Positions 2,672 through 60,802 of a stretch of 64,000 nucleotides of DNA are shown piece by piece. Positions within the stretch are counted from its first letter, which is position 1; every line of letters starts with the position of its first letter. Source of the DNA: a virus. Below the pieces are notes generated by a model, which was not told where the DNA came from, did no database searches, and worked only from the letters and a program-made list of their open reading frames with translations. A program made the translations under genes and the position numbers. The stretch lies in IMG/VR virus record IMGVR_UViG_3300006802_000089, positions 10,398-74,397 of that record, one strand, 5' to 3'.

Positions 2672-3310
2672 TTATATTCTGCATTTTCCGTCTTCGCATA
2701 AAATAGAAGTTATAATTTCATGCACATGTTGATATTTGTTTGTTGGAGCTGCGTGTCCGGCACTTTCGAATTGAAATTGTCTTCCGCCTACTGGTGCAAT
2801 AAAAGCTCCATGGGTTGAAGGATTGGATACTACATCCCAACAAATAAGTTCAAAATCAGGTTGAACTTCCATTAGTCCTTCTTTTAATTCTTTAACACTG
2901 CCTAAACCTCTTGAAGATATTCCTAATTTAATTCCTTCTTTAAACAATGATTTTAATATTTTTCCTGATGGTGTATCTAATACTTGTAAAGCTCCGCATA
3001 AATCGTTGCCTTTCCACCAAATTTTTAAAATGTTATGTGACACATTATTCAGGTTAACAACTTGTGATTCTGGATGATCTAGTTCACCTAATGCTCTGTG
3101 TTGCTGAATGAATTCTCGATCATATTTTTTACATTCTCGTTCTAATATCTTTTTAGGATATACTCGTCCGTTTTGATTTTTAGCATCACATCTTTGCAAC
3201 ACACCTTCTACTACGAATCCTCCAGGTACTCCGTAACGATCTCCGGTTGATTCATTCAATGTGTTTAACGGATTGAATGTTATAAAATCTTGTATAAGTT
3301 GTTTAGACAT
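2672..3310 (-). CDS. gp21: Prohead maturation protease (T4 gp21-like)
   Basis: NQNGRVYP, ALGELDHP, VSH, LGISSRGLGS and WDVVSNPST motifs. Confidence 0.95.
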   Translation of the reverse strand: MSKQLIQDFITFNPLNTLNESTGDRYGVPGGFVVEGVLQRCDAKNQNGRVYPKKILERECKKYDREFIQQHRALGELDHPESQVVNLNNVSHNILKIWWKGNDLCGALQVLDTPSGKILKSLFKEGIKLGISSRGLGSVKELKEGLMEVQPDFELICWDVVSNPSTHGAFIAPVGGRQFQFESAGHAAPTNKYQHVHEIITSILCEDGKCRI

Positions 3311-3314
3311 AATG

Positions 3315-3869
3315 TTATTGATTTAGATTTCTAACTCTTTCTGCAATTGTTTTTAATTTGTTTGACATTTCTGTTAAAGCTTTAACCGCTGATTTATTAA
3401 AAGCTTCTCGTGTCATACCACTTTCAGATTTTAATCTGGTTGCATTATGAACAGCTTCTTCTATTTCACGTAATTTTTTATAAGCTTCTTTAATCGTACG
3501 ATTCACTTTTGCTTCAGCCGACATTTTAGGATTTTCGGTAACATATTGTCCATATCCTTCGATAAGACGCTCATAACGTTTTTCCATTGCTTCAGCAACC
3601 TCATTTTTCTTTAAGAAATACTTTCCTGTTACTGGAGCTACGCCAGCAGATGTAGACATTTCATCTACTTTTTCATGATATCCGTTTCCGTCACACTGTT
3701 CACAACCTTTGCCTTCACATTCGGTGCATTGTTCTGCATTTTCTAAGGCATTAACCATTGGCTCTTCTTTATTTCCATCTCCATCAAAATCTAAATAATC
3801 AGGTTTTGCTTTTTCTGTTAATGGTACACGTTCAAATTTTCTTTTCATTTCCGTAATCAATTGTTTCAT
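3315..3869 (-). CDS. Hypothetical protein with an EF-hand-like loop and CxxCxGxG repeats
   Basis: DYLDFDGDGNKEE; CTECEGKGCEQCDGNG. Confidence 0.6.
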   Translation of the reverse strand: MKQLITEMKRKFERVPLTEKAKPDYLDFDGDGNKEEPMVNALENAEQCTECEGKGCEQCDGNGYHEKVDEMSTSAGVAPVTGKYFLKKNEVAEAMEKRYERLIEGYGQYVTENPKMSAEAKVNRTIKEAYKKLREIEEAVHNATRLKSESGMTREAFNKSAVKALTEMSNKLKTIAERVRNLNQ

Positions 3870-4711
3870 TGGTGAACTCTGTTTAATTCGTCAACTAGGT
3901 CAAAATATCTTAGCAGTGATAATACATGAGACTCTTTTATAACTTTCATGTTTTCCACATTGCAAAGCATTTCTGCTAAATTTTCTATTTTTATACGAGC
4001 AACATCATCTTCAGTTTTTGAAACATGTTCTTTTAGTTGCTGTTTAATTTTTGGTATTTCCGTTTTAATATACCGTTTAAGAGAATCTGTATCATTAACG
4101 TGTGTTATGTATTGATTCAACAATTTTTTCTGAGCTTCTGACAGATTGGTGTATTTTGAATTAAACTTGTCTACCAACAATTTGTATGTTAATAATCGGG
4201 TATCTTTGCTTTGTTTTCTGAATTCTTCGTATAATTCATCCGTTTCCGTTTTTTTAGCTATCATTGTGTGTTCTAGTATCACATCTTTGCATTTAGCAAT
4301 TTGTTGAACGGTAGCTTGATCTGCATATTCAAACAACAGGTATGTAGAAGCTAAAACTTTGTAATTTGATATGCGAGCATTTGATAAAGAATCGAAAGAA
4401 AAATTTTCTTGTATTTCTTTTACCAGATTGTATTTTTGTCTGCGCAATGTGCTTTGATTCAATTTGCGATAAGCTGCTTGAGCTTCTTTAATAAAATCTA
4501 ACGCACGTGCTTCTGATTTGTGTTGTTCTTTGATAATTGAATTATACAAATTTAATTCTTTTGATAATTCCGTGTTTTTGCCGAAATATTTTTTTATAAT
4601 ATCTAATGCAATTGTTTTGTCAGAAGTTAGTGTTTCTGAAGTCAGTTTTCTAACTAACATTTCAAACAATATTCCGGTATTTTTGTACTTCGAATGTTTG
4701 AGTTTTTTCAT
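3866..4711 (-). CDS. Hypothetical head-module protein
   Basis: 281-aa ORF between portal and protease; late motif upstream. Confidence 0.65.
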   Translation of the reverse strand: MKKLKHSKYKNTGILFEMLVRKLTSETLTSDKTIALDIIKKYFGKNTELSKELNLYNSIIKEQHKSEARALDFIKEAQAAYRKLNQSTLRRQKYNLVKEIQENFSFDSLSNARISNYKVLASTYLLFEYADQATVQQIAKCKDVILEHTMIAKKTETDELYEEFRKQSKDTRLLTYKLLVDKFNSKYTNLSEAQKKLLNQYITHVNDTDSLKRYIKTEIPKIKQQLKEHVSKTEDDVARIKIENLAEMLCNVENMKVIKESHVLSLLRYFDLVDELNRVHQ

Positions 4712-4758: not shown

Positions 4759-6597
4759 TTATAAAATATTGTTTTCATCTAGCAATGTTCCGCTATCTTC
4801 ATCTTTTTTTGCTGACTCATACAGCATTTGATTTGCTAAACTTTTATTTTTCTTGTTTATTTTTTTCAATACATCAATATTTTCACGTCGCATATTATAT
4901 GGAGAACTTGTGCTAGCTCGGCGACTGCCTCTTGGATCTGGTTGGAATGTTGTTCGTTGATTTTCCGGATCCATGTGTTGTTTGATTTGTTTGATACCCA
5001 GCGGATCCCATCCGAATGCATTCTTGTGTTGTCCAGATTTAATTCCTTCCGGCGGACGACCTCCTGGATCATCACTATCTGTACCCATATGCATTGAAGC
5101 TAAATCATGAGGTGTTCCGTATGAAACTCCTGTTACCGTAGGATCATTTCCTTCTTGTTCAATTTGACTTTGACGGAATCTCAGTTTAAGATCTTCTATT
5201 ACATCGTTCCTTTCTTGCAACCATTGTTCTTCAGACATATTGAATATGTATTCGTATATGAATCTGTCTGAAACTAGTTTAGAATCTTTCATTGCGCCTG
5301 CTAACTGAATTTTTTCATTCATGAGTGCAATTTTTTGTTGATCATAAATAATAGACGGAGCTGTTAATTCTAAATCAAAATTAACTAGATCTGCATCTTC
5401 ATATCCTTGAGTATATAAATGAACTATTGCTATTTTTGCAAGTTCTGATTCTATAATTTTTTGAATACGCTCAATAGTACGTGCAAAACGTATATCCATT
5501 GATGCTAATGTGGATTTTCCTTCTACTCCTTCATCAAATCCTAAAAATGGTTTAGGTATTTTAAGAGCAGCCATCATTTTGTTTTTAACATATTCGATGT
5601 CATCTATACCGGTAAATTCCATTCCCGGCAGTGAAGATATCTCAGTAGATGAATTTCCTCCTCGCACGGGTAAAAAATAATCTTCCAACATGTTGTTCAA
5701 GTTGAACTTCAAATTGTAATTACCTGTTCTTTGATCTACATATGGAACTTTTTTCATTTTGTTGATCATTTGTTCCATGAATGCATCAACTTCGTTAGGT
5801 GGTATATTACCTATATCTACTTTGAATATTCTTTTTTCTGGAGCTCTCATTACACGATGAATAAGCATTGCATCTTCAAGCATTGTTAATTTTTGAAATT
5901 CTTGTCGTGCTCCTTCTAACATGGATCGGCCGTAAGGTAAGAAGTTAGAATCTGAAATTAATCTGAAATGTGCTATTTCAAACACATCATATTTTTCTTC
6001 TGGGTTAGAAACATGATGAAACTCTATTTCATAATCTCCAATATCTTCACGATATTCTTCCCAACGTTCCATTTCATAACTAGAAAATGGTCTAGCATTG
6101 ATAATACCTACTTCATCTGAAATATCTAGTTTTAAAAAGAAATCTCCGTATTTACACATATTTCGAATCCAAGGCCACAAGTTGAATTCTATGTTTAATA
6201 CGTCATAAAACAGGTTGTTTAATATTTTTTGTATTCTGACATCTTCGGTTTTAATTGTTAAGATATCTCCGAACTGATTGGCTAATGTAGATTCATCGGC
6301 ATATATGTCTAATGCAGAACTGATAATAGGATCTTTATCCATCATTTCAAAATCAGTGTATAACTGCATTCTGTTTTGGTGCATATAATAATTTGAATCA
6401 TATCCACCCATACCTCCGACAGCATGACGATTAGTTCCATGCATTCTGGTGTATCTGTCGGCTATTTTGCTTCCTACTAAATTTCCGGATGATTGTAATC
6501 TGTTTGTGTCGACTACACGTAGTTTGTCTTTACCATACGCTCTTACGATAACGTTGGTACGAAACAGATTTCGTAATCTTCTTCTTAATGATGCCAT
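4759..6597 (-). CDS. gp20: Portal protein (T4 gp20-like)
   Basis: LEDAMLIHRVMRAPEKRIFKVDIGN, LEDYFLPVRGG, TEISSLPG, ALKIPK motifs. Confidence 0.95.
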   Translation of the reverse strand: MASLRRRLRNLFRTNVIVRAYGKDKLRVVDTNRLQSSGNLVGSKIADRYTRMHGTNRHAVGGMGGYDSNYYMHQNRMQLYTDFEMMDKDPIISSALDIYADESTLANQFGDILTIKTEDVRIQKILNNLFYDVLNIEFNLWPWIRNMCKYGDFFLKLDISDEVGIINARPFSSYEMERWEEYREDIGDYEIEFHHVSNPEEKYDVFEIAHFRLISDSNFLPYGRSMLEGARQEFQKLTMLEDAMLIHRVMRAPEKRIFKVDIGNIPPNEVDAFMEQMINKMKKVPYVDQRTGNYNLKFNLNNMLEDYFLPVRGGNSSTEISSLPGMEFTGIDDIEYVKNKMMAALKIPKPFLGFDEGVEGKSTLASMDIRFARTIERIQKIIESELAKIAIVHLYTQGYEDADLVNFDLELTAPSIIYDQQKIALMNEKIQLAGAMKDSKLVSDRFIYEYIFNMSEEQWLQERNDVIEDLKLRFRQSQIEQEGNDPTVTGVSYGTPHDLASMHMGTDSDDPGGRPPEGIKSGQHKNAFGWDPLGIKQIKQHMDPENQRTTFQPDPRGSRRASTSSPYNMRRENIDVLKKINKKNKSLANQMLYESAKKDEDSGTLLDENNIL

Positions 6598-6643
6598 ACT
6601 TGATATTATTTTTATATAAATATAACTTAATAAAGATCAGCGG

Positions 6644-9586: not shown

Positions 9587-10527
9587 TTACGCCATATCTT
9601 CTGCAGAGCTTGGATCTACATTTATTTGTTTATTGCTAAACAATCCGTTATTCTGCATCCATATGATAATATCTCTTCTCATATCAGTCTTACTAACTTC
9701 TTCACCAGTTTTAGCTTCAATTTGTTGTATTGTATTTTTTAAAATATTTAACATTACAGCTGTTGCTTTTTCTTCTGGTTGTGGTTGATTAATTAATCGA
9801 CTGATTAATAACTCTTGGAATTGTGCAACAGGTCCTTTTTCTGCTTGTAATTGAGCATCAGGATCTCCTGCTTCACCGGTTTCAGTGCCATCTAGTGTTG
9901 GTGCATCTGCTGGAGCTTCTGGAGTTGGTGCATCTGCTGGTGTTGGTGTTTCTGGTGTTGTTGCGGCTGCGGGTGCTTCTGGAGCTGCAGTTGGTTCGGG
10001 AATCGGCTCTGGTGCAGGTTCTGCTGCTACTGGCTCTTCTTCTGTTTCTTCTGCTTGTTCTCGAATCATGATTGCAATTTTTCTGCGAACATATTCTCTG
10101 ATTAATCGTTCTTTATTTGATTCAGACAAACGATTTACTCGCTCTTGCAATTTTTCTTCATTTTCTGGCTTTACCATGCTATTAGTAATTGCGCCATGAT
10201 CGATTCGTTCTAATTTTTCCAAGAATCCGTCAGTATCTTCAATCTGAAGTTTGTCAAACAATTTTCTTGCATGCTCTGCAGAATATTCTCCTTCTTCTAT
10301 TTTTTTGTATAAACGATCTTTGATTTCTGGTACCATGTTTTCTATGTTGTCAATGACATTAGTAGCATATTTTCTAGGTACATTTGGTTGAACGCCTTTT
10401 ACACCACCAGGAACCATGTTAGGGGCATCTTCTGCTGTGTAATCCTTCATGTCTTTGCGTGTTTCTGCTTTCAGTGACTTTGCCATGTCTTTTGATGCTT
10501 TGTAGTTGCTCTTATGTTTTCAGCCAT
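9587..10527 (-). CDS. Hypothetical protein with Pro/Ala-rich linker; true start probably 10527 (1-nt deletion in an A-run)
   Basis: Late motif at about 10546 precedes ATG 10527; adding one A gives MAEKHKSNYKASKD-MAKSL in frame. Confidence 0.6.
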
Positions 10528-32933: not shown

Positions 32934-32963
32934 GATATATTCTTTTTAATATAAATATAAGCC

Positions 32964-42915: not shown

Positions 42916-42970
42916 ATAACGATGTTTTTTAATTTTCGTATATTTATAATAAATAAAATAGAATGTATAC

Positions 42971-44212
42971 ATGATACGGTTAAAACATTTATTAATTGAA
43001 CAAACACGTGTTTCTCCAACTACTTACAACACTGTGTCTATTGAAACAACGATGCAAACTTTGACAAGGGACATTGCTAATTATAATCCTAATACTGGTT
43101 ATATTGCAATAACCAATGGTAATCTATGGCTAGCAACACAACGATCTAATTCTTTAAGAGATTTATTATTGCAGCCAGAAACACAAGAGAGTATTGGTAT
43201 TACAAGACCCATAAACCCTAATTGGATCCGAATCCAGCCACCTACAGTACAAGGAGAAGGCCAAGCCAATCAGAAAGTTGTAGGAACATTACAAGCTAGA
43301 TTATTTCGTCCGGAGGAAAGACAAGAAGAATATCCGTATCAAATCAATTATGAATGGCATGAAATAAATAATGTTCCTCATATCCTTGTTACAAAACAAG
43401 GATTAGGTGCACCTCAACCGCATAATGTTAATAAAACAGGAGCTAATAGTGAATTGGATGTCAATAAAGATACTGCTGTGTATAATAAAATGAAACAATT
43501 CCAAAACAAAATTCCGGAAAATAATACGAAGATCTTAAGAGCTCTTTCAGGAGCCGGAACAGCACAAGGCCCAGTTTACACGGATACTACATGGGGTATC
43601 ATGATACCAGTACCTCAGGATCTTTATAAATATGTTGCAAAACAAGGAACATTTATATATTTTACAGAAGAACAAAAAGATAGTTATATTAAAACTAAAG
43701 ATATGATAACAAAATATGTAGATAATACAGGAATTAGAACAGGTGAAAACTATACTGATTTTACTCAGGTTCGTGGCAGTGGAGATACTCAGTTTGGAAA
43801 CACAACGGGTAGGTCTGCAACTGCATGGGACAAACAAGGAAATTATAATAATAGTTCACAAGTAAACGTTGTATCATATGATAAATCTACAACTGGTAAT
43901 GTTCCTGGCCAGGTTATATCTGGCAAAGAGGAAAAATGGGAAACATTGGATGTTATTAACTTAGATGAAAATTATTTTATAGCAAACATGATAAGTTTGA
44001 AGCCGGATACATATAATACTATATTTGCAAATATAAAAAATATATTAGCAAACAAATTTGAACAAGAACAACTAGCATTCGTAGATTTAGCAGTTACAAT
44101 ACAAGGATTTGCATCAACAGCCCGTGCTACTAACAGATTATCCGGTGGTCTCACAACTCCTGATCATGATTACGGCGGCCGCGTGCCAGCAAATCTTTGG
44201 ATATATAGGTAA
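42971..44212 (+). CDS. Putative head-packaged protein with split OmpA-like motifs
   Basis: MIRLKHLLIE leader; N-terminal GNLWLATQRSNSL and C-terminal VTIQGFAS. Confidence 0.6.
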   Translation: MIRLKHLLIEQTRVSPTTYNTVSIETTMQTLTRDIANYNPNTGYIAITNGNLWLATQRSNSLRDLLLQPETQESIGITRPINPNWIRIQPPTVQGEGQANQKVVGTLQARLFRPEERQEEYPYQINYEWHEINNVPHILVTKQGLGAPQPHNVNKTGANSELDVNKDTAVYNKMKQFQNKIPENNTKILRALSGAGTAQGPVYTDTTWGIMIPVPQDLYKYVAKQGTFIYFTEEQKDSYIKTKDMITKYVDNTGIRTGENYTDFTQVRGSGDTQFGNTTGRSATAWDKQGNYNNSSQVNVVSYDKSTTGNVPGQVISGKEEKWETLDVINLDENYFIANMISLKPDTYNTIFANIKNILANKFEQEQLAFVDLAVTIQGFASTARATNRLSGGLTTPDHDYGGRVPANLWIYR

Positions 44213-44234
44213 ATACTTAATTCTGTTAAAATTA

Positions 44235-44798
44235 TTAATCAAAAATCGCGGTATAATAATCTTCCCACTCAGTGTAAAAATTTTTTCGGCCAACATAAGA
44301 TCTAAACGCAAATCCGGTACCGATATATTTGTTGTTAGGATCTAAAAGTGCATCTCTGTGAGCATCTGATGTCATCCATTGTCGTACATGTAACTCGGCA
44401 TTATGTTTTACCCGCGTTAGAAAATTTCCATTTCCATAAGTAATTACTTCATCCATTCCGTTACCAGAATGTTGATATTTGTTTTTACTCATCCATACCG
44501 AATGACGTTGAGCTTCTTTCATGAAATCGTCACGAGGAATAAGTGCATTCAATCCTCGTTTCGTTCTTTCATAATTAATGAAACGAATCATGATTTCTCT
44601 GTATGTTTCGATGTGTTGAAGATTTAACTCTGCAACACTGTCTGCGTATAATAAATCAGACAAATCAACTTCATGATAAGTATCACATAAACTATCTAAT
44701 AATTCAAGATGTACTTGTCTTAAAGAATCTCTATACTTAGTTTGGGAATGTGATAAAGTAACAATCGTTACGGCTAGTATTACTAATAACTTTTTCAT
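44235..44798 (-). CDS. CAP (SCP/PR-1) domain protein with signal peptide
   Basis: INYERTKRGL...AQRHSVWM...HS...WMTSDAHRDALL...IGTG. Confidence 0.85.
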   Translation of the reverse strand: MKKLLVILAVTIVTLSHSQTKYRDSLRQVHLELLDSLCDTYHEVDLSDLLYADSVAELNLQHIETYREIMIRFINYERTKRGLNALIPRDDFMKEAQRHSVWMSKNKYQHSGNGMDEVITYGNGNFLTRVKHNAELHVRQWMTSDAHRDALLDPNNKYIGTGFAFRSYVGRKNFYTEWEDYYTAIFD

Positions 44799-44890
44799 GG
44801 CTTTAATTTTTAATTTGTTAACTATTTAATTTTATATATTATATGTAATATTTTTCACAAATCCAAATATCACTGAAATTAAAAACGAAT

Positions 44891-44903
44891 ATATTTATAT
44901 TAA
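44891..44903 (+). promoter_or_regulatory. Late-promoter-like motif ATATTTATA (one of about 20 copies)
   Basis: ATATTTATATTAAATG, identical to the sequences at the starts of ORFs 52522..52824 and 53602..54300 on the minus strand. Confidence 0.7.
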
Positions 44904-46352
44904 ATGATTAGATTAGCCGATATACTGAAAGAATCCGAATATGCTCATTACCGCAATCTGCGTTACGGATTAACGGAACAAGAAGAAGGCAATTGGTTTA
45001 CTAACTGGATAAAAGACGCTGGCCAAGAATATGTTAAATATAAAAAAGCTGAAACTGAAGCACATATGGAACTGGCTCGTAAACTATACGAATATCGACA
45101 TGGCCTTTTAGATATAGCAGAAATAGCAACTCTTTTCTGGCCTCCGGTATCTGCAGCAATAGGTGCCGCTCATGCTGGACTATATTTTTATGAAGGCGAT
45201 CCTGAAATGGGTGTTTTATATTTAGTATTTGCTGGAATGACAGGACTTCCTCCTGCACCAATTAAATGGCTAGCTAAATATATAAAAGCTCTTAAAACCG
45301 GCGATCAAGTCGTAGCAAAAAGTATTGAACAGGGACTAGGACAAACTGAAAAAAAAGCATTAGAAAAAATGTCTGAAATGGGTGCAAGAAAATCAGGAGA
45401 AGAGGTAGTAAAATGGACATCAAAAGGCCTGGCTCAAAACGCTGATTTTTTTGCTAGAGAGGCATTTAGCAATCAAATAGGCAAATTTGCATCTAAATTG
45501 CCAGCACAATCATTAAAACCATCATATGGTCGAGTAGTATTAAATATACTCAAATATATATTCAGATACGCAGGGAAATTTTTGCTCGGTGGATCTAAGT
45601 TTGTCGGCACACTATATGTATTTCATCATATTTTAAAAGTGTATCATTGGTTATGGGAAACGTATTATTACGTCGGACAGAGTCCAGAAGAATTTAGTAA
45701 AGAATTAGGATTAGACAACACAATAAATTGGGATTCAGCAGATCCAATATTAAAACAAGTGATTACTGGTGAGTCTACTGAAAAAAATACTATTAAATTA
45801 TCAAGTTTAATATCAGAAAACTCAAATATGCCTGATTTCCTAGGAAAAATATTCGATGCAGTCGAAGATTGGTCATCACAATTAGATGAAACGTCAAACT
45901 CAATTATTGAACTAATGACAACTAAATCAGAGTTGTCTGACAATGAAATTAAATCGATAGCTAAGACTATACTAAGTAAACACATGGATATGAGCAATGC
46001 GCCTAGAAAAAAACGAGCATATATAGATTCTGGTGATGTTACTCAGTCTGTAGCTGCAACTGATCCAAATGCAAAACAAGCTGCAGCTGCATTATACAAG
46101 TCCATGAAAGGCTTAGGCACCGACGAAACATTGTTGTTTAAAACTTTACAAGACATGATAGATAATCCAACTTGGGGATATCAAGCAGTTGTCGAATTTA
46201 ATAGTAACTCAAAATACAATGAGGGTGATGATTTAAAATCCTGGTTAGAAGGTGATTTATCATTTGGATCAGAACGAAAAGCATTGGAAATGCTTGATCA
46301 GATCATGAATACTGCTAATAATACTAGTAACTCCGGCGGTGGTGGATGGTAA
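44904..46352 (+). CDS. Putative head-packaged protein with a pre-toxin-like hydrophobic hairpin and a C-terminal annexin-like repeat
   Basis: MIRLADILKE; HGLLDIA...AGLYFYEGD; LYKSMKGLGTDE...LKSWLEGDLS. Confidence 0.65.
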   Translation: MIRLADILKESEYAHYRNLRYGLTEQEEGNWFTNWIKDAGQEYVKYKKAETEAHMELARKLYEYRHGLLDIAEIATLFWPPVSAAIGAAHAGLYFYEGDPEMGVLYLVFAGMTGLPPAPIKWLAKYIKALKTGDQVVAKSIEQGLGQTEKKALEKMSEMGARKSGEEVVKWTSKGLAQNADFFAREAFSNQIGKFASKLPAQSLKPSYGRVVLNILKYIFRYAGKFLLGGSKFVGTLYVFHHILKVYHWLWETYYYVGQSPEEFSKELGLDNTINWDSADPILKQVITGESTEKNTIKLSSLISENSNMPDFLGKIFDAVEDWSSQLDETSNSIIELMTTKSELSDNEIKSIAKTILSKHMDMSNAPRKKRAYIDSGDVTQSVAATDPNAKQAAAALYKSMKGLGTDETLLFKTLQDMIDNPTWGYQAVVEFNSNSKYNEGDDLKSWLEGDLSFGSERKALEMLDQIMNTANNTSNSGGGGW

Positions 46353-46371
46353 AATATAAATAATAAAAATT

Positions 46372-47946
46372 ATGATACGATTAAAAAGAATACTAGAACA
46401 AAAATCTTCATATAGTAACATTGATAAGTTAGATAAAAATTTCGAAATTAAATTATCAAGCTTGATATCAGAACAAATCACAGATACAAATCAAGCCGGT
46501 AAAACAGTAGACGCAGCTGCGGCAGATTTACACGATTCAATGGATTGGCTGGGAACAGACGAAGACTTATTATTCGCTACTTTAAAAGCAATGGCTGATG
46601 AACCGGCTTGGGGTCAACAAGTTATCGATCGATTTAATAGTGCTGAGAAATACAGTGAAGGTGATGATTTGAATGATTGGTTGGATGGAGATTTGTCTGG
46701 CAATGATTTGACAAAAGCAAAGGCGTATATAAAGACCATCGAAGCTGTATCGTCCGATCAACAAGAATCGAAATCGATTGATGAAAAATTAATGCTAGAA
46801 ATAAGAGAAAACGCACAACAGCTTTATGGAGCTCCATCTGAAGATTTAGCGGACCAGATATTCGGTTGGCTTTGGTGGGAGAATGGATTAAAGATATTAG
46901 GAGTTTTAACAATTGCGCTGGCTGCAGGTGCTGGCCTGGAGAGGCTGGGGGTGGACCTGAAAAACACTGCCCTAGGTAAGGGTGTTAAAAAGTTACTTGC
47001 AATACCGGGATGGATTTTTAAAAAAGCATGGATTAGTGGAGTGTCATGGCCCTTATTCCGAGGTGTTTTAAGAATTCCTTCAAAATATATGCCATGGCTG
47101 ATCAAATTTTCAAGTAAAACATTTCAACGAAACTGGATTAAAGAATCGTTATTAAAACCATTTCGCAATGTTATGAATAAATACGAAAAAGAATCCTATG
47201 AACATACAAAAATAAAAACATGGATAGACAATATTTCAGTTGCCTTAGATAAAGAATCTGATACTGTAGATGCATTAGTAACCAGTGTATATAATAAACT
47301 AAAAACATCTGCTTATGAAGTATTATATAATCTACGCAATGGAAAGATGTCGCAGTACGCCACCCTGCCGGCCAGCATGGAAGCGGGTTTTGTAGAAATT
47401 TTAGGAGATTTATATCGAATAGATCCAGCAAGATTTGGTAAATCATTTGCAGAAGAGATGATGACAAAATTAGAAGTCACAGCTGAAAGTCGTTCTAAAA
47501 TTTTAGCTGAATTAGAAAAGTTTTATCCAAAAGTTGAAAAAGAATCGGAAACAATAATTCGAGCGTACAAAGAATTGCCTACGGCAGTAAAAGAATTACC
47601 AGGATATGAAAATATATATAACAGATATTCTAACAAAATAGCAAATGCTGAAGAAACAATTGAATTATTATATAATAATATAAAAACTGGAAATTTAGGG
47701 CCTGGTTCCGGACTTCCAAATTACTTTAATCGAATTGCTAACTCGATCGAGCGGCCGTCGACAACCAATCCATCCAAATGGTATAATGAGTTTGGTCAAT
47801 ATTCTGATAACGTTCGTATTCAAATAGGTTGGGATCCTATTAAACAACGGCCGTTTGACCACGCTGTGAAAAGATTTCAAAACGAGATGAACCGAGATCA
47901 GATGTTATGGGATCTTAACAATACCATGAAATCAGCTATTAAATAA
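46372..47946 (+). CDS. Putative head-packaged protein with an N-terminal annexin-like repeat and a TM segment
   Basis: MIRLKRILE; LHDSMDWLGTDE...LNDWLDGDLSG. Confidence 0.65.
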   Translation: MIRLKRILEQKSSYSNIDKLDKNFEIKLSSLISEQITDTNQAGKTVDAAAADLHDSMDWLGTDEDLLFATLKAMADEPAWGQQVIDRFNSAEKYSEGDDLNDWLDGDLSGNDLTKAKAYIKTIEAVSSDQQESKSIDEKLMLEIRENAQQLYGAPSEDLADQIFGWLWWENGLKILGVLTIALAAGAGLERLGVDLKNTALGKGVKKLLAIPGWIFKKAWISGVSWPLFRGVLRIPSKYMPWLIKFSSKTFQRNWIKESLLKPFRNVMNKYEKESYEHTKIKTWIDNISVALDKESDTVDALVTSVYNKLKTSAYEVLYNLRNGKMSQYATLPASMEAGFVEILGDLYRIDPARFGKSFAEEMMTKLEVTAESRSKILAELEKFYPKVEKESETIIRAYKELPTAVKELPGYENIYNRYSNKIANAEETIELLYNNIKTGNLGPGSGLPNYFNRIANSIERPSTTNPSKWYNEFGQYSDNVRIQIGWDPIKQRPFDHAVKRFQNEMNRDQMLWDLNNTMKSAIK

Positions 47947-52360: not shown

Positions 52361-52525
52361 TTAGTTTTCTGGTACTGTTATAACAATTTCATTGTCTTTG
52401 CGTTTTAGTTTGAAATCACTAGGTATTAATCGTTCAAGATATTCTTGGTAATACTGATTTCGATCGAACCTTGGTTTCTCAGATTTTTTCTTTTTTTCGG
52501 ATATTATGTCTCGTAAACTAATCAT
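52361..52525 (-). CDS. Small protein with the shared N-terminal leader (54 aa, not in the ORF track)
   Basis: Manual translation MISLRDIISEKKKKSEKPRF... Confidence 0.65.
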   Translation of the reverse strand: MISLRDIISEKKKKSEKPRFDRNQYYQEYLERLIPSDFKLKRKDNEIVITVPEN

Positions 52526-52824
52526 GTAATATTCTGATAATCTAAGTAACGTTCAATGAATTTATATGCTTGTGCGGTATCAAACAGTTTATGTCGATAT
52601 TTTAAATAGCCTATGAATTCCTCCGGAGAATCTGAATTGTTTCTCATACTCATTAAAGTGTCATAACGATTCCATGCAGTTATGTCTTCATTATCTACTA
52701 AATCATCAAGTTGATTTTCTAACCATTCTTCATAGTTACCTAGTATGGTTTCAAAATTATCACGAACCAAATCGACCACATCTTCATGTGCTGTTTCTGT
52801 CAATATGTCTCGTAATCGTATCAT
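52522..52824 (-). CDS. Hypothetical protein with the shared N-terminal leader
   Basis: MIRLRDILTE. Confidence 0.7.
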   Translation of the reverse strand: MIRLRDILTETAHEDVVDLVRDNFETILGNYEEWLENQLDDLVDNEDITAWNRYDTLMSMRNNSDSPEEFIGYLKYRHKLFDTAQAYKFIERYLDYQNIT

Positions 52825-52839
52825 TTAATATAAATATGA

Positions 52840-53595
52840 TTACATGTTAGGATCGCCAGGTGTATCTATTCCATCGGTAGTGAATTTGACATCGATTGGT
52901 TTACCTATCGTGCTTTTGCTAGGTACAGGAACGTTGCCTTGCATTATCGGATTAGATTGTGCTTGCAAATCAAACAATACAAACTTACCATGTTTAGTAA
53001 AACCTACGTTACCTCCATGGGCTTCGCTGAAATTTATATTCATAGCACGCACATCTTGTAACACTTTTTGTCGTTGATCAATTATAGTATTTAACTGATT
53101 GTACACATCTTGTGTTATGCTATTTTTAGAAAGATCATAATCAATCGATCTTCGAAGATCACTGTCCGGCCGCGATGACGAAAAATACATATATTTAATT
53201 CCATCCCATGCATCTTGCATTTCTGATGTTAACGGAGTTACGCGATCCATGTATATAGCATATATATGATTATATATAGTTTGAATATCGTTTGAATCTT
53301 CACTAGGAAGACGAAATGCGGCTAAAGGTCTCACACTATATATATTAATCAGATGTGGACGTCTGGCTCTTTTTGATATTCGAGCAGCTAATGCAGCTTC
53401 GTTCTGATCTGCGGTAAATTTAATTACTTTGCCTCGCTGAGTAGCAATTGCTTGTCCATAATATCCGCCTCCTAGCCATTCTGCCGGCGAATCTGCAAAT
53501 TGATCAAATATCATCTTCAGTGTTTCTGGCTGTCTTAATTCACCATACACTTTGGTCAAGTTCGTTTCATTCAATATTTGTTTAAGTAGTATCAT
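52840..53595 (-). CDS. Protein kinase-like protein (leader + GIDTP tail)
   Basis: LGGGYYGQA, VIKFT, EA, EAHGGNVG, VLFD. Confidence 0.75.
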   Translation of the reverse strand: MILLKQILNETNLTKVYGELRQPETLKMIFDQFADSPAEWLGGGYYGQAIATQRGKVIKFTADQNEAALAARISKRARRPHLINIYSVRPLAAFRLPSEDSNDIQTIYNHIYAIYMDRVTPLTSEMQDAWDGIKYMYFSSSRPDSDLRRSIDYDLSKNSITQDVYNQLNTIIDQRQKVLQDVRAMNINFSEAHGGNVGFTKHGKFVLFDLQAQSNPIMQGNVPVPSKSTIGKPIDVKFTTDGIDTPGDPNM

Positions 53596-53601
53596 ATTGA
53601 T

Positions 53602-54300
53602 TTACATATCAGGATCTGCCGGCGTATCGATACCCGACCAATCATATGAAGTGTATTTTTCTTTATAGGTTTTACCTCTCGTATCAGGCCTAGTTAACAC
53701 ATCATTGAGTACTGTTGCTAGTTGATCATACGTTTGAATACTAGAAATACCAGTGTGGTGTTTAGATTCTGCTATCAGATCATAGTTTTCATTTATTAGA
53801 AAATAATATTCACAATCTAATAACACTTCTGAAACATTTCCGCTTGGCCAACTGTCTGTGTATGAATCGATAGGAAATGCATCTAAATTGCCTTGATCTT
53901 TTATCATTCTGCTAGCATTTGCATATACATCTGGTACTTGCGAACTCCATATAATTTTGAATGGATTTTTCGGAACAACTATGTATGAACGTCCGGATAA
54001 TCCGAATTTAGATTTGCCATGCGAACAATAAGTAAAATTAGTTAGACCGTATTTATCTTTAATAATATCAAATAAATTTTTAATTGCTGGTTTAGCCATT
54101 AGTCCTAAAGCATTTTTAGTTCCATATGGTTTATCTGCCTCTGTTGTGACTTTCGCAGCTGCTTTATTTAATCCGGCAAATTCTCTGGTTAATATGGTTT
54201 TGCCGGATAATTCGTTGCATTCATACCGAGCAGCTAGATATATTTCAATCAGAGTGTCTCCGTACTCTACTCCTTCGATTATATGTTTAAGTGATATCAT
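53602..54300 (-). CDS. Possible ADP-ribosyltransferase-fold protein (leader + GIDTP tail)
   Basis: ILTR...FTYCS...GRSYIVVP...IWS...SEVLL..EYY, an R-S-E-like arrangement. Confidence 0.45.
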   Translation of the reverse strand: MISLKHIIEGVEYGDTLIEIYLAARYECNELSGKTILTREFAGLNKAAAKVTTEADKPYGTKNALGLMAKPAIKNLFDIIKDKYGLTNFTYCSHGKSKFGLSGRSYIVVPKNPFKIIWSSQVPDVYANASRMIKDQGNLDAFPIDSYTDSWPSGNVSEVLLDCEYYFLINENYDLIAESKHHTGISSIQTYDQLATVLNDVLTRPDTRGKTYKEKYTSYDWSGIDTPADPDM

Positions 54301-54315
54301 TTAATATAAATATGT

Positions 54316-55077
54316 TTACATATCCGAATCCGGTGTATCTATTCCGTCTGTGGTATATATTGTATCATACAATTCAATTTTACGTAAACGATTTATTAAA
54401 TCTGATTTTTCTCTGCGTTGTATAAGATTAATATTAGAACTATCATGGGTAGTCCACATATCAAACAACGTTATACGTCCATGCTTATCAAAACCTATGT
54501 TTCCGGAGTGTGCTTCTTGTTTTCCAATATTTTTTCTGCGCATTGCTTTGATAATCGAATCACGCTGCATTAATGCTTGAGCAGCAAACTTAGGATCATC
54601 AAATATTTCTCGTGTCAGCATATCTCTCCATCGATCGGTATAATAACGAAGATCGTCTCCTGTCCAATCACCCCAATAGCCGGAGTCATGCAGTCTGTCA
54701 AACGTACGTATTTGCATCGGATTGAGTGGAGTATAATAATTAGTTAAAAGTGCAAACATTGCGCCTTCTGGATCTTCATACACTCGTTCGTCTGCAATAA
54801 TTACTCGTACGTCGGCATAACTAGCAATATGCGGATACACGTCTTTGCGGCGCATTGCAGTAGTAGTTTCAGATGCATCTGTAGTAATTTTTAATACCCG
54901 GCCACTGTTTAATTCATATGCCGTACCAAATCCTCCTTCTCCGATATCATATTTAATAGTTTCACCAAAAGCTGCAGCAACATCCGACGCTCTGTCTAAT
55001 ATATCATCATGCAATTGATTGAGTTCTGCACGATCAAATTCGAAGGATTCTGTTAATATGCGTTTTAATTTGATCAT
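54316..55077 (-). CDS. Protein kinase-like protein (leader + GIDTP tail)
   Basis: IGEGGFGTAY, VLKIT, E, EAHSGNIG, TLFD. Confidence 0.75.
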   Translation of the reverse strand: MIKLKRILTESFEFDRAELNQLHDDILDRASDVAAAFGETIKYDIGEGGFGTAYELNSGRVLKITTDASETTTAMRRKDVYPHIASYADVRVIIADERVYEDPEGAMFALLTNYYTPLNPMQIRTFDRLHDSGYWGDWTGDDLRYYTDRWRDMLTREIFDDPKFAAQALMQRDSIIKAMRRKNIGKQEAHSGNIGFDKHGRITLFDMWTTHDSSNINLIQRREKSDLINRLRKIELYDTIYTTDGIDTPDSDM

Positions 55078-55095
55078 ATAATATAAATATGATTG

Positions 55096-55553
55096 TTAAC
55101 TATTCAATATGCGTTGCAGTTGTATGAGCATTAACAGATGATATATGCATAATGCTACGATAGATACTACTTCGCCCCATAAGAAACTAAACGGCATAAT
55201 TATGATACCTATACCATGCATAAAACAGAAAAACTGATAACGCTTTGAATTCCAAAGATTTCGGAATGTGAATATGAAAAATATTATAGCAAATAAATTA
55301 TGAAGCATCGGATACATGCTCACCGAAAACACAGTTAACAACATCAAGAATACTGCCGGAAGCTTCCATTTAGGCAAAGAAAAAAAGAAATAGCTGGTTA
55401 CTGCGTTAGAAAGTATGAATAAAGGTTGCCACTCAGTTTCCCAATATTTTGATAGCGAAGGCATAGGTCCATATGAAATTATCATGATGAACGGCGCAAC
55501 TATTGCTAATGCTATAGCAGATATTTTTAAATGAAACTCTTTTATTATCCCAT
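55096..55553 (-). CDS. Multi-pass membrane protein; true start probably 55553 (1-nt deletion in a G-run)
   Basis: The frame stays open upstream of 55485 (GIIKEFHLKISAIALAIVAPF); ATG 55553 is in frame if one G is added; late motif at about 55569. Confidence 0.6.
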
Positions 55554-55633
55554 GGCAGATTGCTTTATTATAAATATGTTGTACGCTTGACCGTTAGTAC
55601 GTCCTTCCAGGACCGTACGGTACCGCTGCGAGA

Positions 55634-56173
55634 TTACATGTTGGGATTGCCCGGAGTATCGATACCCGATGCATCGGAAACGTCGTCACGCACTATTTCT
55701 AGTTTGCGATCGGTTTGCAGCACTCGGTAACCTGCCTGCGCAAGTCGTGTGCTATTGCTGCGCAGCAAAGCGGCATATATGCGAGTCTTCTGCGCAGCGC
55801 GTTCCTGATAGTGATCCGATCCCGAAACGTCGATAGCAGCAGGCGAATGCTGATTGATAAAATCCATTATGGCTTCCCATATGGTGTTCATCAAACGAAA
55901 ATAGTTTAGCTGTGCGCTAGCGCTAGCATGCGTGTGTGTGGCTGCTGTGCCCCATCTAGATGGTACTCGATATTCCAAGTCGTATGTGAAACCTTCATAT
56001 CGTCTCACGTTGTACCCTATGAGCTGAATGTCGATCTGTTGCCCGTCTGCTTGGAAACTGGTGCGCCAACTGTTGTGGCCGAATCCCGCGCGCGTCCAAG
56101 CAAACTGCGTGGCATATGGCTGTGCGGTGTCTAGGGTTATTTCTGTTATGAGTGATGTTAATCGCATATGCAC
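55634..56173 (-). CDS. Hypothetical protein (leader + GIDTP tail), locally GC-rich
   Basis: MRLTSLITE ... SGIDTPGNPNM. Confidence 0.7.
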   Translation of the reverse strand: MHMRLTSLITEITLDTAQPYATQFAWTRAGFGHNSWRTSFQADGQQIDIQLIGYNVRRYEGFTYDLEYRVPSRWGTAATHTHASASAQLNYFRLMNTIWEAIMDFINQHSPAAIDVSGSDHYQERAAQKTRIYAALLRSNSTRLAQAGYRVLQTDRKLEIVRDDVSDASGIDTPGNPNM

Positions 56174-56418
56174 AGCTGTGATGGTTTAATATAAATATGG
56201 GCGATAACACGTACGTGAGGAATGTATATACGCGCGTATATCTAATAAAGAGCACCTATATAGCAAAAATCTTACCCGTGCTAGAAAAATTGATATAACC
56301 ACCCTATATCTCCACCTATATACGGGGGTGTTAATGAAACCCTCCCCACCCCCCTATTTGACCCCCTCCTCCCCCCTTGTTCGCACCCTATACGCGACCC
56401 CCTCCCCCGAACTGTTCG

Positions 56419-56442
56419 AAAGGGGGCTATGCGCCCCCCTTT
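56419..56442. terminator. GC-rich hairpin, probable terminator of the cassette array
   Basis: aaagggggc-tatgc-gccccccttt. Confidence 0.55.
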
Positions 56443-56463
56443 GCTTGCGTATACATAATATGC

Positions 56464-56616
56464 TTAACACATTTCTACTTGTGATGGTATTAAAACTAAT
56501 GGAATAAAATCATCTAAATAAGGAATGTGTATTGTAATAAACCCATCTTCATTTTTAACGACGTCGTGTATTGTTCCTTTAAGGCCGAATGCATTTGTTT
56601 TTAATTTCACTTTCAT
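56464..56616 (-). CDS. Cassette ORF (50 aa)
   Basis: MKVKLKTNAFG... directly behind a promoter repeat. Confidence 0.6.
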   Translation of the reverse strand: MKVKLKTNAFGLKGTIHDVVKNEDGFITIHIPYLDDFIPLVLIPSQVEMC

Positions 56617-56691
56617 ATCTCTTTGTTTTTAATTATACTTAAATATAAGCAAAATAATGTTAGGATCCTAGTCTTTTCTTAACTTTTTTTA

Positions 56692-56820
56692 TTAAAAGAA
56701 ATAAGTCCAAACCGGCGCATCCGGATGCTTAAGAGACCACACATGATAGTCCCAATAAACCGATCCGACGGCGATTAACGTTAATCCTAATACAATTGCT
56801 ACGACTTTTAACTTTTTCAT
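56692..56820 (-). CDS. Cassette ORF, small TM peptide (42 aa)
   Basis: MKKLKVVAIVLGLTLIAVG... Confidence 0.55.
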   Translation of the reverse strand: MKKLKVVAIVLGLTLIAVGSVYWDYHVWSLKHPDAPVWTYFF

Positions 56821-56825
56821 ATCTC

Positions 56826-57029
56826 TTATTTTAAGATATTATCGTTTAAATGCTTAATTGCATTTTCTATTTCTTCTTTTGCCACATAATCAAACACACC
56901 AAATTTTAAACCAGTTTCCTCAAAAATTAATTTAACATAATTATGTGCTTCATCATAACTATAACCCTGATTAAATACGTGCCTTTTGCATTCATTAATT
57001 TTTTCACCTAATTTTAAAAATAACTTCAT
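56826..57029 (-). CDS. Cassette ORF
   Basis: ORF track; repeat upstream. Confidence 0.65.
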   Translation of the reverse strand: MKLFLKLGEKINECKRHVFNQGYSYDEAHNYVKLIFEETGLKFGVFDYVAKEEIENAIKHLNDNILK

Positions 57030-57092
57030 GTCTCTATCTTTTTAATTATACTTAAATATAAGAATAATATTGCATAAGTCCTAATCTTTTCT

Positions 57093-57359
57093 TTACTTTT
57101 TTCTTTGACCTAATCTACGTGTACCATGCTCAACGGTAACTGCTGTAAACGAAACTTCATTCTCAAAGTTATACTTATCAAATCTAATAAAACCTTCTTG
57201 TGTCATTCTTTCAACGGTATTTCCTGACAGGATCATGTTAAACATAGCCTCATCAACTACCATCTCATCTCCTACTCGATACTGTACAGCTTGGCTTTCA
57301 TATCCAGCTGATTCGAGTATTTCCTTCTTAACGATCAATTTAAATTCTTTGTGTGTCAT
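57093..57359 (-). CDS. Cassette ORF
   Basis: ORF track; repeat upstream. Confidence 0.65.
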   Translation of the reverse strand: MTHKEFKLIVKKEILESAGYESQAVQYRVGDEMVVDEAMFNMILSGNTVERMTQEGFIRFDKYNFENEVSFTAVTVEHGTRRLGQRKK

Positions 57360-60061: not shown

Positions 60062-60802
60062 TTAAACGTATTGCAACAAACTTTCGGATCCTGCTACACC
60101 GCGTAACGCCTTTTCTGCTGCGCGGACTAGTTGTCTCGCCCTTTCCCCAGTTACCTCTAATTTTTCAGCAATTGCCTCCATACATAGCGGATACTCCTGT
60201 CCTATGCCGTAAAACAAAACTAATGCCTCTGCCTGCTTAGCGTTAATCTGTTCCAGCAATCGTGCTAACTCGTTTTGGAATTGTTGTCTTTCGAAATCGC
60301 CTTTCACTTCCTCAGCCTGCAAATATCTGCTTCCAAACGTATCTGAGTTTTCCTCATCATTAATTTGCACATCCGTGCTAACCTCACCATACTCCTCACT
60401 GCGTGTTTTGTGGGATGGGATCCGCACTGTGCGAGAAAAATCATTTAACGCTTTCTGTATCTCTGCGCGGATATACCAAACTGCAAAACTAATAAATTTA
60501 ATATTGCGGCTAGGATCGAAACGCGTTGCTGCCTCAAATAAGCCTATATTACCAAAGCCAATTAAATCCTCCATTGCGATACCCATTCCCTGATAGCTTC
60601 GTGCTACTTGTGCTACAAACCTCAAATTAGCTGCCACTAATTCATTTAGTGCCTGTCTGTCGCCTGCCTGGATACGTTCTGCTAGTTTTCGCTCCTTTTC
60701 TTTGTCAATCATTTTAACACGCTTAATGTCCCGCATATATGCTTTTGTGCTATCAGCCGTGCTATTAATTGCTCCTTTCGTAACAAATATATTCTTTCCC
60801 AT
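60062..60802 (-). CDS. RpoD/SigA-family sigma-70 factor
   Basis: LVAANLRFV..VARSYQG, DLIGFGNIGL..AA.RFDP, KFISFAVWYIR, SRTVRIP, region 4 TGERARQ. Confidence 0.93.
   Translation of the reverse strand: MGKNIFVTKGAINSTADSTKAYMRDIKRVKMIDKEKERKLAERIQAGDRQALNELVAANLRFVAQVARSYQGMGIAMEDLIGFGNIGLFEAATRFDPSRNIKFISFAVWYIRAEIQKALNDFSRTVRIPSHKTRSEEYGEVSTDVQINDEENSDTFGSRYLQAEEVKGDFERQQFQNELARLLEQINAKQAEALVLFYGIGQEYPLCMEAIAEKLEVTGERARQLVRAAEKALRGVAGSESLLQYV

Follow-up and report, generated by a model that had tools for sequence, protein, structure and literature searches.

Why should neighbouring phage genes that encode different proteins end in the same short peptide? The question is raised by a window of 64,000 nucleotides (positions 10,398 to 74,397 of the IMG/VR virus record IMGVR_UViG_3300006802_000089; coordinates below are those of the window), in which four neighbouring minus-strand open reading frames (ORFs), here called K1, A, K2 and U, terminate in GIDTP, three to four further residues, M and a TAA stop codon. 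The original prediction, which had reported this shared C-terminal tag on the four genes, is borne out by the ORF translations, since all four end in M-TAA. An ORF scan of the whole 74.4-kb contig found no further GIDTP-ending ORF. A common N-terminal leader had also been claimed for all four; K1, K2 and U fit its pattern, U as a mild variant, but A deviates slightly, with its Glu at position 9. The genes and their tags are as follows.

52840..53595, minus strand: K1, kinase-like, 251 residues, leader MILLKQILNE at 53566-53595
52843-52887, minus strand: K1 tag KFTTDGIDTPGDPNM, then TAA
53602..54300, minus strand: A, 232-residue protein, fold without assignment, variant leader MISLKHIIEG
53605-53649, minus strand: A tag SYDWSGIDTPADPDM, then TAA
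54316..55077, minus strand: K2, predicted protein-kinase fold, 253 residues, leader MIKLKRILTE at 55048-55077
54319-54360, minus strand: K2 tag IYTTDGIDTPDSDM, short-spacer form, then TAA
55634..56167 from the ATG, minus strand: U, tentatively DUF6934/GNAT-like, 177 residues, leader MRLTSLITE; the program-listed GTG start is at 56173
55637-55681, minus strand: U tag VSDASGIDTPGNPNM, then TAA

A short linear motif, (T/P)-K-[YF]-D-x-[ST]-G-I-D-T-P-[GN]-[DN]-P-x-M-COOH, makes up the tag; it is portable and strictly C-terminal, with the consensus (T/P)-K-Y-D-A-S-G-I-D-T-P-G-D-P-N/T-M at the exact C-terminus. It is ~15-16 residues long and is preceded by a polar linker rich in T, K, P and N. Chance is excluded as its source because a single DNA pattern, GIDTP-x4-M-TAA, matched 59 IMG/VR loci, of which ~55 are in-frame C-termini of the form K-Y-D-A-S-G-I-D-T-P-G-D-P-N/T-M. 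The flanking K-Y-D-A-S and G-D-P were not imposed by the pattern and are conserved all the same, and most of the proteins found in this way start with MIRLKNLLxE. When a profile of the last 36 residues was compared with 1.84 billion representatives, 34 proteins were found at E<1e-3, and 32 of the 34 matches reach the last residue. A word-indexed search returned at least 226 clusters (90% identity), all metagenomic and named at most "hypothetical protein", which disposes of the possibility, raised beforehand, that the tag is confined to the four genes through recent 3'-end conversion. GIDTP, four residues and M stand at the very end of 145 of 147 fetched proteins; the three-residue spacer of K2 is a rare form.

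Searches by tblastn with K2 and with a 25-residue piece of the tag gave no match in 50,697 cultured phage records, and the tag is absent from two cultured relatives, Microcystis phage Mel-JY01 and Flavobacterium phage immuto. A lone GIDTP in immuto lies inside NrdA and was rejected as a chance match. The tag pattern (TAA form, Pro at -3) had 0 matches in 596 Gb of genomes from 185,579 bacterial and archaeal species, and thus no host or prophage copy of this form was found. A search of IMG/VR for relatives with K2 yielded no confirmed relative.

At the invariant residues of the tag, all three Ile codons and three to four codons each for Gly, Thr and Pro are in use. Since synonymous codons vary this freely, selection acts on the peptide, as had been predicted from the four genes, and recent gene conversion is excluded as the sole cause of the similarity. 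The synonymous differences reported among the four tags are also confirmed by reading the DNA: K1 and K2 have GGA ATA GAT ACA CCT/CCG, and A and U have GGT ATC GAT ACG/ACT CCG, so that the tag DNA within the window forms two near-identical pairs.

A pattern search with a table of the fused domains had been proposed, and it places the tag on 13-17 BLAST clusters of cores that are unrelated to one another. Profile-profile comparison (hhalign) between tagged families aligns only the last 17-25 residues. The full-length tagged proteins have ~110-384 residues, most of them with a single core, and the cores are the following.

ParB-like proteins, with a DGHHR motif (Pfam ParBc PF02195 on one cluster)
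a family starting AKQVGxIYHYT, without functional assignment
two GNAT-like/DUF6934 groups
kinase-like proteins
ART-PolyVal (ADP-ribosyltransferase) proteins
one true GNAT and one SET-domain protein
the family of A, and several singletons

The kinase label that had been given to K1 and K2 is supported by a family alignment and, for K2, by a predicted model and its structural matches. The two proteins are 28% identical. K1 aligns with the kinase family and keeps its invariant G-loop, Lys, E-A-H-x-x-N and D, and the alignment that includes both proteins has G48, G51, K63, E70, N193 and D206 invariant; E-A-H-x-x-N, itself invariant, replaces H-R-D in the catalytic loop. The AlphaFold2 model of K2 has a mean predicted local distance difference test (pLDDT) score of 79, with both termini below ~50. 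In a Foldseek search of the PDB, its top 500 matches are kinases, headed by Ser/Thr kinases (GAK, CDKs, PknB) at E ~3e-6, with template modelling scores of only 0.30-0.37. Neither K1 nor K2 has a Pfam match at E<=0.1, and the family profile found nothing significant among PDB sequences. The best of these non-significant matches (E 0.39) is 10ll chain U3, annotated as an AraC regulator; it has a loop motif, E-I-H-D-D-N-Y-G...D, in common with the kinase-like family. Among 5.8 billion proteins the family comprises 48 clusters, 43 with the tag and 47 with the leader. The kinase cores have drifted apart to 27-37% identity (the aligned cores are 28-37% identical to K2), the tag is nearly invariant, and to judge from these clusters the family is almost confined to the tagged phage lineage. 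Phosphorylation of the tag T-P by the phage kinases was considered as well; this idea is weakened by two complete one-tag genomes without a kinase homologue, so that the phage kinases are not required for the tag.

The protein U, formerly labelled as without known function, can now be tentatively described as DUF6934/GNAT-like on the basis of a family profile and fold comparison. DUF6934 is matched by 10 of the 16 members of its family, with a best E-value of 9.4e-8, U itself giving only 0.016. In its AlphaFold2 model (mean pLDDT 80, with a disordered tail), GNAT acetyltransferases dominate both the Foldseek matches (E ~8e-3) and the VIA matches, the Z-scores of 6-7.5 in the latter being in a range that may reflect merely a common arrangement. 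The structural neighbours include GNAT toxins and a GNAT anti-CRISPR. For A, the ART-like label is unsupported: the protein has no Pfam or PHROG match, the tag is the sole part that hhalign aligns with the tagged ART-PolyVal proteins, and an ESM Atlas search gave a poor, uninformative model. Leader and tag form the ends of both AlphaFold2 models, where confidence is low and neither of them is packed.

The leader at the opposite end has the consensus M-I-[RK]-L-[KR]-x-[IL]-[IL]-x-E and varies synonymously in its codons. It is present in 37 of 51 tagged proteins at IMG/VR loci and in all but one of the kinase-family clusters, most of the exceptions being truncated fragments; nearly every full-length protein with the tag starts with it. 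Six to nine leader proteins are found per genome, eight to nine in each of two complete genomes. In the window, leaders without a tag and the protease relevant to them are found at the following positions.

52522-52824, minus strand: p100, leader only (MIRLRDILTE), directly downstream of the tagged cluster
52361-52525, minus strand: p54, leader only (MISLRDIISE), directly downstream of the tagged cluster
42971..47946, plus strand: p413, p482 and p524, large proteins without tag; leaders MIRLKHLLIE (p413) and MIRLADILKE (p482)
2672..3310, minus strand: gp21-type prohead (head maturation) protease, phrog_207, E 3.9e-55, downstream of the portal gene

In phage T4, the internal proteins are diverse defence proteins whose sole common feature is a capsid-targeting sequence (CTS), by which they are packaged into the scaffolding core (PMC3012670). 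The T4 protease gp21 cleaves after Glu and trims the N-terminal propeptides of Alt and the internal proteins (PMC5694885). With its L/I-x-E end, the leader fits the gp21-type cleavage rule (Glu at the cut, L/I at P3), and the protease is encoded by the same phages. The I/L-x-E site is found in the leaders of K1, K2 and U. Two core-like head proteins near the protease gene start with MKQLITE (3315-3869) and MAKTDLLKE (297-1295), with the same L/I-x-E ending as the leader; the latter protein is acidic and scaffold-like, and another core-like protein is encoded at 3866-4711. The tag has no Glu and hence no gp21-type site. The leader also heads two proteins of complete relatives, one of 589 residues with a phage tail lysozyme domain (L080:14548-16314, minus strand) and one of 259 residues with lysozyme and LysM domains (L085:14470-15246, minus strand). 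It is therefore not confined to small effectors.

The portal protein (4759-6597; phrog_213, E 3.2e-63), the large terminase and a baseplate wedge protein identify the phage as a T4-like myovirus. Its portal is 53% identical to that of Mel-JY01 and 47% to that of immuto. The record with the window is estimated to be 44% complete. Complete IMG/VR relatives have 160-169 kb, and the label of jumbo phage given earlier is thus not borne out. The tagged proteins belong to a single lineage of such T4-like myoviruses, aquatic and uncultured. At least 320 IMG/VR contigs encode a relative of the portal (E <= 1e-3), the best 80 being 74-96% identical, and sequence of the cluster region occurs in metagenomes from 11 studies of freshwater, estuary, lagoon, marine, marine sediment, seawater and sponge samples. 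Five genomes of 78-100% completeness, found through the tag, have one or two tagged genes each; in an 83%-complete relative the full tag is missing. The window with its four tagged genes is the richest seen, near-complete genomes having 0-2. The two-ended addressing that had been proposed therefore stands in part: the tag does occur together with the leader, but it is not a general system, being found on only 0-2 of the 8-9 leader genes per near-complete genome. As read from these genomes, the tag would be a sub-address on a minority of leader genes.

The motif probably arose as the C-terminus of a GNAT-like/DUF6934 protein, gained T-P-G-D-P-x-M, and was then copied to other cores. This origin is suggested by a short form of the motif in untagged orthologues and by the two complete genomes in which the single tagged gene belongs to the GNAT-like family. 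Paralogues of this family are present in the window and in all four genomes of the lineage that were searched (G001, G002, G009 and G010), and orthologues without the full tag keep a short end, D-x-[ST]-G-[IV]-[DEKR], in forms such as ...ADTTGIKD, ...ADSTGIRDTP, ...YDWTGIKDK, ...DADATGIE and ...DADATGVESESR. Cassette recombination would have spread the motif from the GNAT-like protein to the kinase-like, ParB-like, ART, SET and other cores.

The setting of the genes is that of a variable cassette region. In one clade, the slot of the tagged genes is flanked by ribonucleotide reductase on one side and by FolE/QueD-like genes on the other, and in the clade of the window the tagged genes lie in a leader-gene cluster near a DUF5856 gene; the same slot holds different cores in different genomes. 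Of the exchangeable effector set proposed earlier, core comparison and neighbourhoods support interchangeable enzyme-like cores with both termini in hypervariable cassette slots. Metagenome contigs join 52824>55564, 55077>56215 and 52354<>56220, with breakpoints at promoter motifs; we interpret these joints as strain variants without one or more cassettes, each joint being one contig of a fragmentary set in which uncovered parts prove nothing. No small gene and no enzyme gene is conserved beside the tagged genes in both clades. A candidate adaptor neighbour, a small Cys-rich gene that is situated upstream of this slot in one of the clades, was rejected, because in G001 it is 88 kb away from the tagged gene.

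A promoter-like motif, ATATTTATAWTAA, occurs at 17 sites in the window, where 2.8 would be expected; all of them are on the coding strand, and together they span 6611-56198 (for example 6611-6623 and 32946-32958). It precedes the portal and tail/baseplate genes as well as U, K2, A (with K1), p100, p413 and p482. Copies near the tagged and leader genes, together with a further gene of the cluster, are listed here.

56186..56198, minus strand: late-promoter-like motif ATATTTATATTAA, upstream of U
55565-55577, minus strand: copy before the membrane-protein gene
55096..55485, minus strand: predicted membrane protein, 129 residues, inside the tagged cluster, without leader and without tag
55078-55090, minus strand: copy before K2
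54301-54313, minus strand: copy before A and K1
52825-52837, minus strand: copy before p100
42940-42952 and 44891-44903: copies in the p413/p482 region

A homologue of the membrane protein adjoins a tagged kinase in one relative (L026). The motif also stands before structural (portal, sheath, baseplate) and leader genes in the complete relatives and in immuto; this pattern does not hold in Mel-JY01. Read on the sense strand, the motif equals the T4 late box TATAAATA in reverse complement. With this motif in common, the tagged genes may be expressed late, along with the head genes. Since the motif touches the ATG of several leader genes, with gaps of 0-13 nt, the mRNAs of those genes may be leaderless. 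The one RNA run contained only 5% of the sampled words.

What, then, would the tag do? We propose that the leader directs the protein to the core of the assembling prohead and is removed there, after which the C-terminal tag would be the only element still common to the mature cargo. The tag would serve as a docking handle, recognised through its free carboxy-terminus, whose spacing from the G-I-D-T-P core is fixed; this fixed spacing suggests a pocket that reads the chain end. The likeliest partner would be a conserved structural protein of the phage, such as the capsid inner face, the portal or a core remnant, and docking would retain or position a small, enzymatic subclass of the cargo for delivery with the DNA. 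That the tag binds such a structural partner, for retention or positioning, is the reading we favour, at somewhat less than an even chance. A broader version is a bipartite address, in which the cleavable leader loads the head and the lasting C-terminal 15-mer picks the enzymatic effectors for a later step, either an ordered passage out through portal and tail or attachment to a single host hub. We hold it only tentatively, as rather unlikely in this full form.

Several points weigh against docking within the virion. The first DNA pattern fixed G-I-D-T-P and M-TAA, an ascertainment bias that the profile searches relieve in part. Given the leader proteins of lysozyme type, targeting to the capsid may not be the only role of the leader. 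Since the T4 CTS is by itself enough for loading, the need for a second loading signal is not obvious. Nor has the tag proved essential, the 83%-complete relative having none in full. No PDZ, S41 tail-specific protease or FHA domain is encoded in the complete genomes, and a genome comparison for the partner left 61 families that are in both complete tagged genomes and absent from two tagless cultured relatives, which are too many to single one out.

Instead of a phage partner, the tag may after injection bind one conserved component of the host machinery or nucleoid, for example RNA polymerase or the ribosome, and so recruit various modifying enzymes (kinase, acetyltransferase, ADP-ribosyltransferase, SET methyltransferase, ParB-like NTPase/nuclease) to the same substrate. 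Such docking to a host hub would explain why every annotatable tagged core is a macromolecule-modifying enzyme while the leader-only proteins differ in kind (lysozymes, large uncharacterised proteins). The tag is predicted to be disordered and exposed, like substrate-recruitment motifs, and if the leader is cleaved, only the tag would reach the next cell. However, fifteen near-invariant residues at a fixed distance from the carboxy-terminus are long for a recruitment motif, and mimicry of a host C-terminus is improbable, as no such end (TAA form, Pro at -3) was found in the 185,579 species. We regard a host hub as unlikely, although it is the alternative that survives best.

The strict terminal position and fixed carboxylate spacing (145 of 147) are typical of chain-end signals, and they would also suit a degron that a protease or unfoldase of host or phage recognises, or a handle for a phage-encoded inhibitor. 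Potentially toxic enzymes would then be broken down or inactivated when not kept inside the capsid; alternatively, their activity after injection would be brief. The cargo enzymes are likely harmful to the cell; as noted, the structural neighbours include toxins and an anti-CRISPR of the GNAT type. Known C-degrons are much shorter and hydrophobic at the end. The tag, by contrast, is long, acidic and rich in Pro and Gly; moreover, a phage-encoded tail-specific protease or PDZ domain was looked for and not found, and no small neighbour gene is conserved with the tagged genes in both clades. This makes a degradation or silencing signal quite improbable.

The motif might instead be the assembly arm of the GNAT-like/DUF6934 protein, borrowed by other enzymes to join its oligomer and ride along. 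Every genome of the lineage that was searched has a GNAT-like orthologue, the short form persists even without the full tag, and the single tagged gene of two complete genomes is GNAT-like. In the monomer model, however, no packing of the tail against the GNAT-like core is seen, and piggy-backing seems unnecessary for proteins that own a leader. We give such a hetero-oligomerisation tail little credence.

Equally doubtful is a reading without a role in the virion, in which leader and tag are recognised in some other process, for instance by a modifying enzyme or for localisation within infected cells, or in which leaderless late mRNAs constrain the sequence of the leader. The short distance of 0-13 nt between the promoter-like motif and the ATG of several leader genes is in keeping with it, as is the leader on the endolysin-like lysozyme and LysM protein. 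Against it stand the synonymous variation of the leader codons, the lack of a conserved enzyme gene beside the tagged genes in both clades, and the L/I-x-E end, the gp21-type protease and the similar core-like N-termini, which fit the T4 model.

Finally, a recent 3'-end gene conversion, or a DNA or RNA element over the gene ends with a functionless peptide, could account for the two near-identical tag DNA pairs in the window (K1/K2 and A/U), for the promoter-like motif downstream of three of the four tags (K1, K2 and U) and for assemblies that break at tag-region junctions, but it is effectively excluded, as hundreds of tags from at least 11 studies keep the peptide with every synonymous codon and the sequences after the stop codon are quite different in the other clade.

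Some further features of the region may be recorded. In relatives, the DUF5856 gene and the leader cluster have a conserved neighbour that encodes a very basic protein of 47-49 residues (MSKVKVNVAKTHLAKPKVKRPG...; L005:7703-7846, L018:104-250 and L046:843-989), which may be a DNA-binding internal protein. Upstream of U, on the minus strand, lies a G-rich tract with runs of 4-7 G (56300-56440) in a genome of ~34% G+C, and a G+C hairpin at about 56425-56450 lies upstream of that tract; no Rfam match reached the gathering score of its family over 55400-57200. At 56468-56835, the summed contig depth is 3-10 times that of the flanks in four metagenomes, and many contigs end or diverge there; this stretch, which holds a promoter and a small ORF, seems to be common to many related phages or repeated. 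An RNA polymerase sigma factor homologue of 246 residues (60062-60802, minus strand; phrog_351, E 2.7e-39) is encoded ~4 kb from the cluster. No tRNA genes were found in the window.

We have compared the two termini with known address signals. The leader resembles the CTS of T4 IPI-III and Alt in that a short common peptide with a Glu-type site at its end is carried by unrelated, fast-evolving small proteins, the genes lie in hyperplastic loci and a gp21-family protease is encoded; it may thus be regarded as a member-like variant of the T4 CTS. The T4 signal, however, is N-terminal only, whereas here a second peptide is present at the opposite end of a subset of the leader proteins. We know of no C-terminal tag of such a kind described for T4. 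Encapsulin C-terminal cargo-loading peptides, and the capsid-binding C-terminal tails of phage scaffolding proteins and of the HK97 protease, dock cargo to the inner face of an HK97-fold shell. The tag is like the encapsulin peptides in being a conserved extreme C-terminal peptide after a flexible linker on unrelated enzymes (at the end in 145 of 147, with low pLDDT). Unlike all of these tails it coexists with an N-terminal signal, and the likeness is one of layout. Polyvalent proteins are giant multidomain polypeptides of phages and conjugative elements that are thought to be delivered with the invading DNA (PMC5512222; Iyer, Burroughs, Anand, de Souza, Aravind 2017). Their repertoire overlaps with that of the tagged proteins in ART-PolyVal, ParB-like and acetyltransferase domains, but here the proteins are separate and small, with one domain each bracketed by two short tags. 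The substrates of type IV (and type I) secretion are unrelated effectors with an uncleaved C-terminal signal, which a machine related to DNA translocation reads. The common C-terminal signal on unrelated effectors is similar; these are, however, cellular systems whose signals are compositional or domains rather than a near-invariant 15-mer, and there is no homology.

N-terminal capsid-targeting peptides are already known from T4, and it is the C-terminal tag that seems to be new. To our knowledge, a second near-invariant tag at the other end of CTS-like leader proteins has not been described, and by its sequence it looks like a second address label on phage cargo. If it is a sorting or docking signal, it would allow probably injected enzymes (kinase-like, acetyltransferase-like, ADP-ribosyltransferase, SET and ParB-like) to be catalogued from sequence in phages that are widespread from freshwater to marine habitats, and would give a handle on how cargo is retained, ordered and aimed after leader removal. 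It would also be a compact peptide for loading or directing foreign proteins. Should the bipartite address be true, any enzyme with both tags would become an injected effector that can be read straight from the sequence.

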